From: a virus
Lineage: Duplodnaviria; Heunggongvirae; Uroviricota; Caudoviricetes
IMG/VR virus record: IMGVR_UViG_2568526722_000002
Location: 1-54,562 of that record
Strand: one strand, 5' to 3'
Length of the DNA stretch: 54,562 bases
Shown in pieces: positions 43,048 to 43,952 of the stretch (position 1 is the first letter of the stretch; each line of letters opens with the position of its first letter). Under the pieces are notes generated by a model, which did not search any database, had not been told where the DNA came from, and saw nothing but the letters and a program-made list of their open reading frames with translations. Position numbers and translations under genes: made by a program.

Positions 43048-43952
43048 CGGATCACCCCATAGGCCCAGTCAGTGTTGTTGAAGTCCAGATCTGGCTTGAC
43101 AGCGCGCTGCTCACCTCCGGCGTTACGCTGCATTGTCAGCTTGTCCCACTGCTTACGCAGGCTTTCGGGACTCAGGATGTTGGTCTGCCAGAAGTGGTGT
43201 TTGCTAGCCCAGTCATACAGCGCGCAGATGTCCTGGTGCGACCGGTTGTCTATCTGGCGCATCAGGCGAACAGTGTTAGACCAGGAGGTCATGTCCGGGG
43301 CTTTGCAGGTTGGGTTAATCAGCTTCACCCTGGAGGAAATCCACTTAGCTGTCTCGAGGTCTTCAGCAGAGCCCCACTTCGCACCGGATGGTGTGTAGAC
43401 CGCAGCTTCAGGATGAGTTGATAAAAATTTCTTCAGACGTGCGTCAGAGGATTCGTCAGAATTCTCGGACGAAGATCTTTTAATACTGTTCTTGTTCTTG
43501 TATTGGGTGTCTACCGTTTTCGGGAAGGTTATTCCTGATTTCGGGAAGGATTTTCCCGTTTTCGGGAATTTTCTTCCCGTTTCCGGTTTGTCTAAAATCC
43601 ATGCTGAAAGGTCAGTGTTTACACCGACGATTTTCATCATGCCCTGCTTCTGTGAAAAGATGATTTTGCGTTCTGCGAGAGACTTAAGCGCGTCCGATAC
43701 ATGCGTATCGCTCAGGCCCGTAAGCTCGGCAATAACCGTATTTGTCACGCGGTCCTGTTTCTTGTTCCAGCCGTAGGTAAGCCAGATCACCGCCTCAAAA
43801 CATTGCCATTCCCGGCCTGACAGTCTCAGGCGAGGCTTAAGCTGTTGGATCTCGTTAGCGACCTTGGTATACCCGTTCGACAGGTCGGCCATACGACCTC
43901 CCGGTTGTTCGGTTTTATTTGGGAAATTGATTATTTCAGCGGTGTTTGACAT
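43044..43952 (-). CDS. O: replication initiator O (lambda O-like)
   Basis: Internal start MSNTAEIINF (GGAGA upstream); N-terminal domain like lambda O; ori iterons lie inside the coding region. Confidence 0.75.
   Translation of the reverse strand: MSNTAEIINFPNKTEQPGGRMADLSNGYTKVANEIQQLKPRLRLSGREWQCFEAVIWLTYGWNKKQDRVTNTVIAELTGLSDTHVSDALKSLAERKIIFSQKQGMMKIVGVNTDLSAWILDKPETGRKFPKTGKSFPKSGITFPKTVDTQYKNKNSIKRSSSENSDESSDARLKKFLSTHPEAAVYTPSGAKWGSAEDLETAKWISSRVKLINPTCKAPDMTSWSNTVRLMRQIDNRSHQDICALYDWASKHHFWQTNILSPESLRKQWDKLTMQRNAGGEQRAVKPDLDFNNTDWAYGVIR
43511..43590. promoter_or_regulatory. ori iterons (four ~19-bp repeats with dyad symmetry) inside the O gene
   Basis: Four consecutive units built on TTCCCGTTTTCGGGAA-type cores, followed by an AT-rich stretch. 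Confidence 0.6.

Follow-up and report, generated by a model that had tools for sequence, protein, structure and literature searches.

An iteron array inside the O-type initiator gene of an Escherichia coli prophage as the probable replication origin of a phi80/mEp237-type element

The initiator gene and its iteron array

The window analyzed here, comprising all 54,562 nucleotides of the IMG/VR virus record IMGVR_UViG_2568526722_000002, contains a lambdoid prophage that encodes an O-type replication initiator on its minus strand, and the subject of this analysis is an array of four short repeats (iterons) located within that gene. A previous reading based on the sequence alone had proposed that these repeats mark the replication origin of the prophage. 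The 302-residue product of the gene matches the Phage_rep_O (Pfam, 5.9e-25) and phage_O_Nterm (NCBIfam, 1.8e-40, residues 22-118) families, as well as the 'replication initiation O-like' PHROG (3.4e-122), confirming the assignment of the array to an O-like initiator gene. A longer, 313-residue frame starting at a GTG codon (43985) was dropped in favor of the ATG codon at 43952, in agreement with phi80 and mEp237. The iterons occupy gene positions 364-442 (codons 122-148), directly past the N-terminal DNA-binding domain delimited by the phage_O_Nterm match. The C-terminal half of the protein aligns with lambda O, with the array lying between the two halves. Directly downstream, and overlapping the O stop codon, is a gene encoding a lambda-P-type helicase loader (Table 1).

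The region 43511-43590 reads ctaCCGTTTTCGGGAAggtta TTCCTGATTTCGGGAAggatt TTCCCGTTTTCGGGAAttttc TTCCCGTTTCCGGTTTgtc and encompasses four head-to-tail units (43511-43589) with a period of exactly 21 bp, made up of a 16-bp core and a 5-bp spacer. The four consecutive units of the sequence-only reading were thus recovered, but not the length of ~19 bp that had been assigned to them. A repeat search returned copies located 21 nt apart with inverted repeats nested within them, and Tandem Repeats Finder reported a period of 21 with 3.5 copies (43514-43586; 78% matches, score 90). Mismatches were counted for each core against the 16-bp consensus TTCCCGTTTTCGGGAA. Dyad symmetry, which had been attributed to all four units, is well developed in the inner two, although perfect 6-bp arms are present only in the third core by coordinate; the outer two units are half-degenerate, each retaining one good arm.

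The last iteron is adjoined downstream, along the direction of O transcription, by a stretch with 12 G/C in 37 bases (~32% GC), the lowest GC content of the gene if its 5' end is set aside (0.325-0.35 in 40-bp windows, versus 0.51 for the gene). The placement of an AT-rich stretch after the array is hence correct in the reading direction of O but not on the plus strand, where this stretch precedes the array and the sequence past the array (43580-43639) presents 40-42% GC and is not markedly AT-rich. The downstream edge of the origin is formed by a 31-bp segment that includes an imperfect palindrome centred on GAATTC; the 31 bp are 100% identical to lambda-like phages and align with lambda positions 39150-39180. 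This block accounts for the short 100% megablast matches to lambda-like phages. The segment shared with lambda comprises TCGTC.GAGAATTCTG.CGAATCCTCTGAC, and the lambda counterpart of TTCGTCCGAGAATTCTGACGAATCCTCTGAC is TTCGTCAGAGAATTCTGGCGAATCCTCTGAC.

Table 1. Coordinates of the initiator gene, the origin elements and neighboring features in the window, with the gp15 protein_bind features of phi80 (JX871397).
Feature	Coordinates	Strand	Coding-strand sequence	gp15 site, window coordinates	gp15 site, phi80 locus (L001)	Remarks
O-type replication initiator gene	43044..43952	-				302 aa, 909 nt; ATG start at 43952
Iteron 1	43574..43589	-	AAACCGGAAACGGGAA	43574-43588	3531-3545	4 mismatches to consensus; left arm degenerate; first when O is read 5' to 3'
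Iteron 2	43553..43568	-	TTCCCGAAAACGGGAA	43553-43568	3510-3525	0 mismatches; perfect 6+4+6 dyad
Iteron 3	43532..43547	-	TTCCCGAAATCAGGAA	43532-43547	3489-3504	2 mismatches to consensus
Iteron 4	43511..43526	-	TTCCCGAAAACGGTAG	43512-43526	3469-3483	2 mismatches to consensus; adjoins AT-rich stretch
AT-rich stretch	43474..43510	-	ACACCCAATACAAGAACAAGAACAGTATTAAAAGATC			Presumed unwinding element
Conserved GAATTC-centred segment	43443..43473	-	TTCGTCCGAGAATTCTGACGAATCCTCTGAC			Downstream edge of origin
Lambda-P-type helicase-loader gene	42358..43047	-				229 aa; Pfam Phage_lambda_P 1.9e-49
Hairpin followed by T-run	43987..44030	+				Between O and cII-like gene
cII- and cro-position genes	44037..44881	-				Pfam families YdaT/YdaS
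Repressor gene	44911..45297					128-aa helix-turn-helix product; divergently oriented
Low-GC gene	45438..46742	+				434 aa
isrJ match	38420..38493	-				Rfam; 68.7 bits

Identity with phi80 and integrity of the prophage

The O gene and phi80 gene 15 agree at 909/909 bases, and 221 bp around the array present 100% identity to two independent phi80 records. Database searches with the O gene returned mEp237 (99.9%), phi80 (99.8%) and HK225 (99.6%), with 1 nt difference in the mEp237 O gene. Four protein_bind features labelled gp15 are annotated inside gene 15 in the GenBank record of phi80 (JX871397), and their positions correspond to the four cores (Table 1). The window hence carries the phi80 iterons and a whole initiator gene with the matching N-terminal domain at 100% identity, as in the phi80 replication type. 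On this sequence evidence, the origin is one already known, that of phi80, which was sequenced decades ago and is annotated in GenBank. The sequence-only reading had described the iteron sequence as different, which is accurate with respect to the lambda iteron (ATCCCTCAAAACGAGGGA) but not with respect to phi80, the iteron set of which is exactly the one found here.

The prophage nature of the element, correctly named in the sequence-only reading, is supported by its boundaries. The junction with the chromosome (10007-10023) lies at ~10007, directly past the 3' end of yciI; the chromosome to its left (flank 5000-10006) is that of E. coli, and positions 10007-11252 match mEp237 and phi80 at their attP-proximal end. 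An integrase gene is located at the high end of the element and is cut by the end of the window. The 301 bp of the origin region were detected in 126/5426 complete E. coli genomes (~2%), including the laboratory strains DH5alpha and DH10B, in which a defective phi80 lacZ derivative is present.

Cryptic prophages are common in E. coli, and the presence of the same 301 bp in DH5alpha and DH10B could also be read as a sign that the origin is an inactive relic of a defective prophage. We consider this highly unlikely. The O gene product is identical to that of phi80 gene 15, and the P-type protein differs by one residue from the product of phi80 gene 14 and by one residue from mEp237 P. From the att junction to the cut integrase gene, the element spans roughly 44.6 kb, versus 44.4 kb in mEp237, and no disruption was seen in the early region upon inspection of open reading frames and family matches. 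The presence in this prophage of an apparently intact phi80-type replicon has little significance in itself.

Conservation of the array and exchange of its module

When one genome was scanned for each species, 27 loci were found whose products are related to the N-terminal domain at 71-99% identity; they cover ~20 genera, among them Enterobacter, Morganella, Xenorhabdus and Photobacterium. With the addition of phages PHB10 and Meifeng, 30 distinct sequences were available for the computation of column entropy. The four cores were present in 21-bp phase in 30/30 relatives, with no insertions or deletions except in one Kluyvera locus (L032, Kluyvera genomosp. 3), which presents a 1-nt gap inside iteron 2 that would shift the O frame. 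A further singularity was observed in Pectobacterium odoriferum (L025), where CCCCCTATATCCCCCAAGGGGG replaces the conserved GAATTC segment.

Mean column entropy was 0.218 in the iteron cores (0.231 at third codon positions), 0.946 in the spacers (0.764), 0.405 in the upstream coding sequence (0.861) and 0.349 in the AT-rich stretch (0.412). Second codon positions in the cores averaged 0.127 and are about as conserved as third positions, and entropy was roughly equal over the three codon positions of the AT-rich stretch (0.28-0.41). Conservation hence tracks DNA sites and not codons. This pattern indicates that the array is under constraint at the DNA level, and not merely as a peptide repeat.

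Read in frame, the 21-bp period yields the peptide series ETGRKFP KTGKSFP KSGITFP KTVDTQY, so the repeats might simply reflect a peptide (a heptad such as FPKTGKS) that recurs in the flexible linker of O, and be devoid of any role as DNA sites. The entropy values make this explanation extremely improbable: third codon positions are nearly as conserved as second positions in the cores and highly variable upstream, and the 5-bp spacers, which are also coding, contain the most variable columns. Furthermore, a peptide repeat does not require dyad symmetry, and the sites are annotated as binding sites for phi80 gp15.

A hairpin or terminator was also considered as the primary role of the array, and rejected: the spacers vary and the stems do not, and the sites are annotated as protein-binding. 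The perfect dyad was flagged as terminator-like on the plus strand, antisense to O, in a consensus scan. A 101-nt single strand of the array region folds better than shuffled sequences (z = -3.5), with a weak centroid structure, and such folding would be produced by a palindrome array in any case. Two small open reading frames, 43480..43602 on the minus strand and 43492..43776 on the plus strand, were discarded as artefacts of the repeat.

The comparative analysis also outlined the exchange of gene segments among relatives. PHB10 and the Hafnia phage Meifeng have in common with the window the N-terminal half of O and the iterons. In a Klebsiella phage, the DNA match covers the C-terminal half of O and ends before the iteron array, with another repeat (GCCGCACATGAA) present at the corresponding place in the linker. 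The presence of the C-terminal half alone together with a different repeat indicates that the N-terminal domain is exchanged along with its sites. A mosaic junction within the O gene was located at the conserved GAATTC-centred segment (loci L005, L006 and L007), and the relatives sharing half of the gene break nearby. The sharing of half-genes agrees with the known modular structure, in which a recombination junction lies at the origin.

At core positions 3 and 14, two of the more distant loci, from Morganella (L033) and Photobacterium (L034), carry mirrored substitutions that convert TTCCCG/CGGGAA into TTACCG/CGGTAA. In the Morganella sequence, the only one of the two with the N-terminal domain aligned, this change is accompanied by two unique substitutions, S85N and D91N, in the putative recognition helix. 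The co-occurrence of the mirrored core change and these substitutions hints that site recognition in this initiator family follows a readable protein-DNA code. The 30 phase-locked iteron arrays, with their matching initiator domains, could be of use in the study of site recognition by O-type initiators.

The imperfect outer units are themselves preserved. The asymmetric form of iteron 1 is maintained in the 30 relatives, and the right arm of iteron 4 is degenerate, yet near-invariant. The non-consensus arms concerned are the distal AAACCG of iteron 1 and the CGGTAG of iteron 4, which lies beside the AT-rich stretch and is followed by ACACCCAA; both are near-invariant across the 30 sequences. 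It might be speculated, albeit with considerable doubt, that these non-palindromic arms are distinct functional elements and not weak iterons, involved for instance in setting the direction in which the nucleoprotein structure formed by O (the O-some) assembles or in the nucleation of unwinding.

A putative origin of replication

Taken together, the data strongly support the interpretation of the array as the replication origin of a phi80/mEp237-type lambdoid prophage, positioned inside the initiator gene of an element integrated beside yciI in the E. coli chromosome, to which we assign a probability of about 95%. Several observations weigh against this interpretation. The outer two units fit the dyad consensus poorly. 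A scan with the 16-mer at up to three mismatches returned 3 matches in the 54.5-kb window versus 0.62 expected from shuffled sequences, a modest excess that was reached by 4/100 shuffles and is hence of weak significance alone. In addition, the 45-nt stretch 43466-43510 is less extreme in composition than its lambda equivalent, with a GC content of 0.38 versus 0.24 and a purine fraction of 0.58 versus 0.76. The 3 matches all fall within 58 bp, in strict 21-bp phase, and no further site of this quality (three mismatches or fewer) was detected by the motif scan anywhere else in the window. The main argument against a chance arrangement comes from the aligned relatives, in which phase-locked conservation is stronger evidence than the motif count.

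In lambda, O dimers bind inverted-repeat iterons and bend DNA, and on supercoiled DNA the bound O opens the neighboring AT-rich region, after which P delivers DnaB (PMC5043065, PMC7466680, PMC3349717). Binding, unwinding and firing in the window can be envisaged by analogy with this system. Dimers of the O-type initiator (phi80 gp15) would bind the four dyad iterons through their N-terminal domain, and the 21-bp spacing, equivalent to two helical turns, would align the four sites along one face of the double helix, allowing the array to wrap into an O-some. On supercoiled DNA, the O-some would open the adjoining AT-rich stretch, and the C-terminal half of O would then recruit the P-type protein (gp14) carrying the host DnaB helicase, with host chaperones releasing P. 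Rightward early transcription, which corresponds here to the minus strand and to the cro-like, cII-like, O and P genes, would both supply O and P and activate the origin.

Cloned lambda iterons, in combination with oop, inhibit phages of the same replication type (PMC3349717), and one could hence argue that the array mainly titrates the initiator or controls it negatively, mediating incompatibility or the exclusion of related phages, and is not a start site; this is scarcely credible, as in lambda the same origin shows such inhibition in addition to its initiating role and not as an alternative to it, and the adjoining conserved AT-rich stretch and P-type loader gene favor initiation at this locus.

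Neighboring genes and other features of the prophage

Upstream of O, and on the same strand, the prophage encodes a cII-like gene (YdaT family, CII-like PHROG) and a Cro/YdaS-like gene, with the repressor gene divergently oriented. The Pfam families assigned to the genes in the cII and cro positions, YdaT and YdaS, are named 'toxins', and the PHROG assignment identifies the YdaT-family gene as a CII-like activator.

The interval separating O from the cII-like gene contains, antisense to cII, a long GC-rich hairpin (AAAGCCG..GGTG..CACC..CGGCTTT) with a T-run after it. The lambda oop and phi80 M3 RNAs occupy this position. The hairpin is identical in mEp237 and unrelated to phi80 M3. No Rfam match to an oop-type RNA was obtained in a scan of the whole window, the single match being to isrJ, an Hfq-binding small RNA, which scored 68.7 bits versus a gathering score of 37. 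The isrJ match falls in the section of the prophage that separates the late-gene regulator from the replication genes.

The 434-residue gene just downstream of the repressor gene presents a GC content of 31-36%, versus ~50% for the prophage. This post-repressor position is the one occupied by rexAB in lambda. Searches with its product yielded no match in Pfam, NCBIfam, PADLOC or a single-sequence PDB search, and a full-length match to PHROG 5990, of 'unknown function'. More than 6000 homologues were identified, and all those listed are unnamed or designated as 'hypothetical' or 'uncharacterised'; they include proteins from phages and satellite phages of Stenotrophomonas, Providencia, Porphyromonas and Streptococcus. 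Three Klebsiella prophage contexts, with two different replication modules among them, carry a 70%-identical homologue that likewise follows the repressor gene.

A profile built from six homologues returned a weak match (E = 0.04) to the Thermoplasma proteasome beta subunit, with the alignment covering the N-terminal Thr segment and a GGPxDVAVIxKxDG motif. Residues Thr2, Asp18 and Lys37 are invariant among the homologues. In proteasome numbering, Thr2 and Asp18 correspond in position to Thr1 and Asp17, and Lys37 falls at Lys33 after a short insertion in the profile alignment. An AlphaFold model generated with 48 homologues reached a predicted local distance difference test score (pLDDT) of 88; a single-sequence model (pLDDT 32) was useless. 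Based on the profile and the model, this protein may be regarded as a candidate protease with a predicted proteasome-beta-like fold, possibly acting in exclusion or defence. Full-text literature searches returned no description of such a prophage protein, and this gene constitutes a more promising lead in the window than the origin.

Comparison with known replication origins

The origin in the window resembles lambda ori in its overall layout, as had been proposed from the sequence alone. In both cases the origin lies in the region encoding the linker of the O protein and consists of four dyad sites followed by an AT-rich stretch and a GAATTC-centred segment, in collinear order, with the P gene, here of the lambda P family, coming next. 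The arrays occupy equivalent gene positions (364-442 in the window, 349-433 in lambda), both are followed by sequence that is A-rich and T-poor on the coding strand, and the half-sites have a similar flavor (TCCC...AAAAC...GGGA). The two origins differ in the iteron itself, which is 16 bp in the window (TTCCCGAAAACGGGAA) and 18 bp in lambda (ATCCCTCAAAACGAGGGA), in the spacing of the sites, which is regular in the window (21/21/21) and irregular in lambda (20/24/23), and in the AT-rich stretch, which is less extreme in the window. The O proteins are 39% identical. As judged from the genetics of lambda-phi80 hybrids, the N-terminal domains are expected to be specific for their own origin.

Relative to the phi80 origin in gene 15 (JX871397, X13065), there is no difference within the origin, and this origin is also carried by mEp237 and HK225. 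The surrounding prophage is mosaic with respect to phi80, and both its immunity region, with the YdaS/YdaT-like cro and cII genes and the 128-residue helix-turn-helix repressor, and its oop-like RNA region follow mEp237. The Shiga-toxin phages 933W and P27 likewise harbor iterons and an AT-rich tract inside O, but their origins contain six lambda-type iterons, in contrast to the four phi80-type iterons identified here.

The similarity extends to the iteron origins of plasmids. In plasmids, iterons are as a rule direct repeats located outside the rep gene, to which the initiator binds as a monomer. In the origins of F, R6K, pSC101, P1 and similar plasmids, an array of replicon-specific initiator-binding repeats likewise lies beside an AT-rich unwinding element (PMC5043065). 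The sites in the window are dyads, to which dimers presumably bind, located inside the initiator gene, and the initiator belongs to the O family and not to the plasmid Rep-iteron family. The origin described here is hence similar in its mode of operation to iteron plasmid origins, but is not a member of that group.
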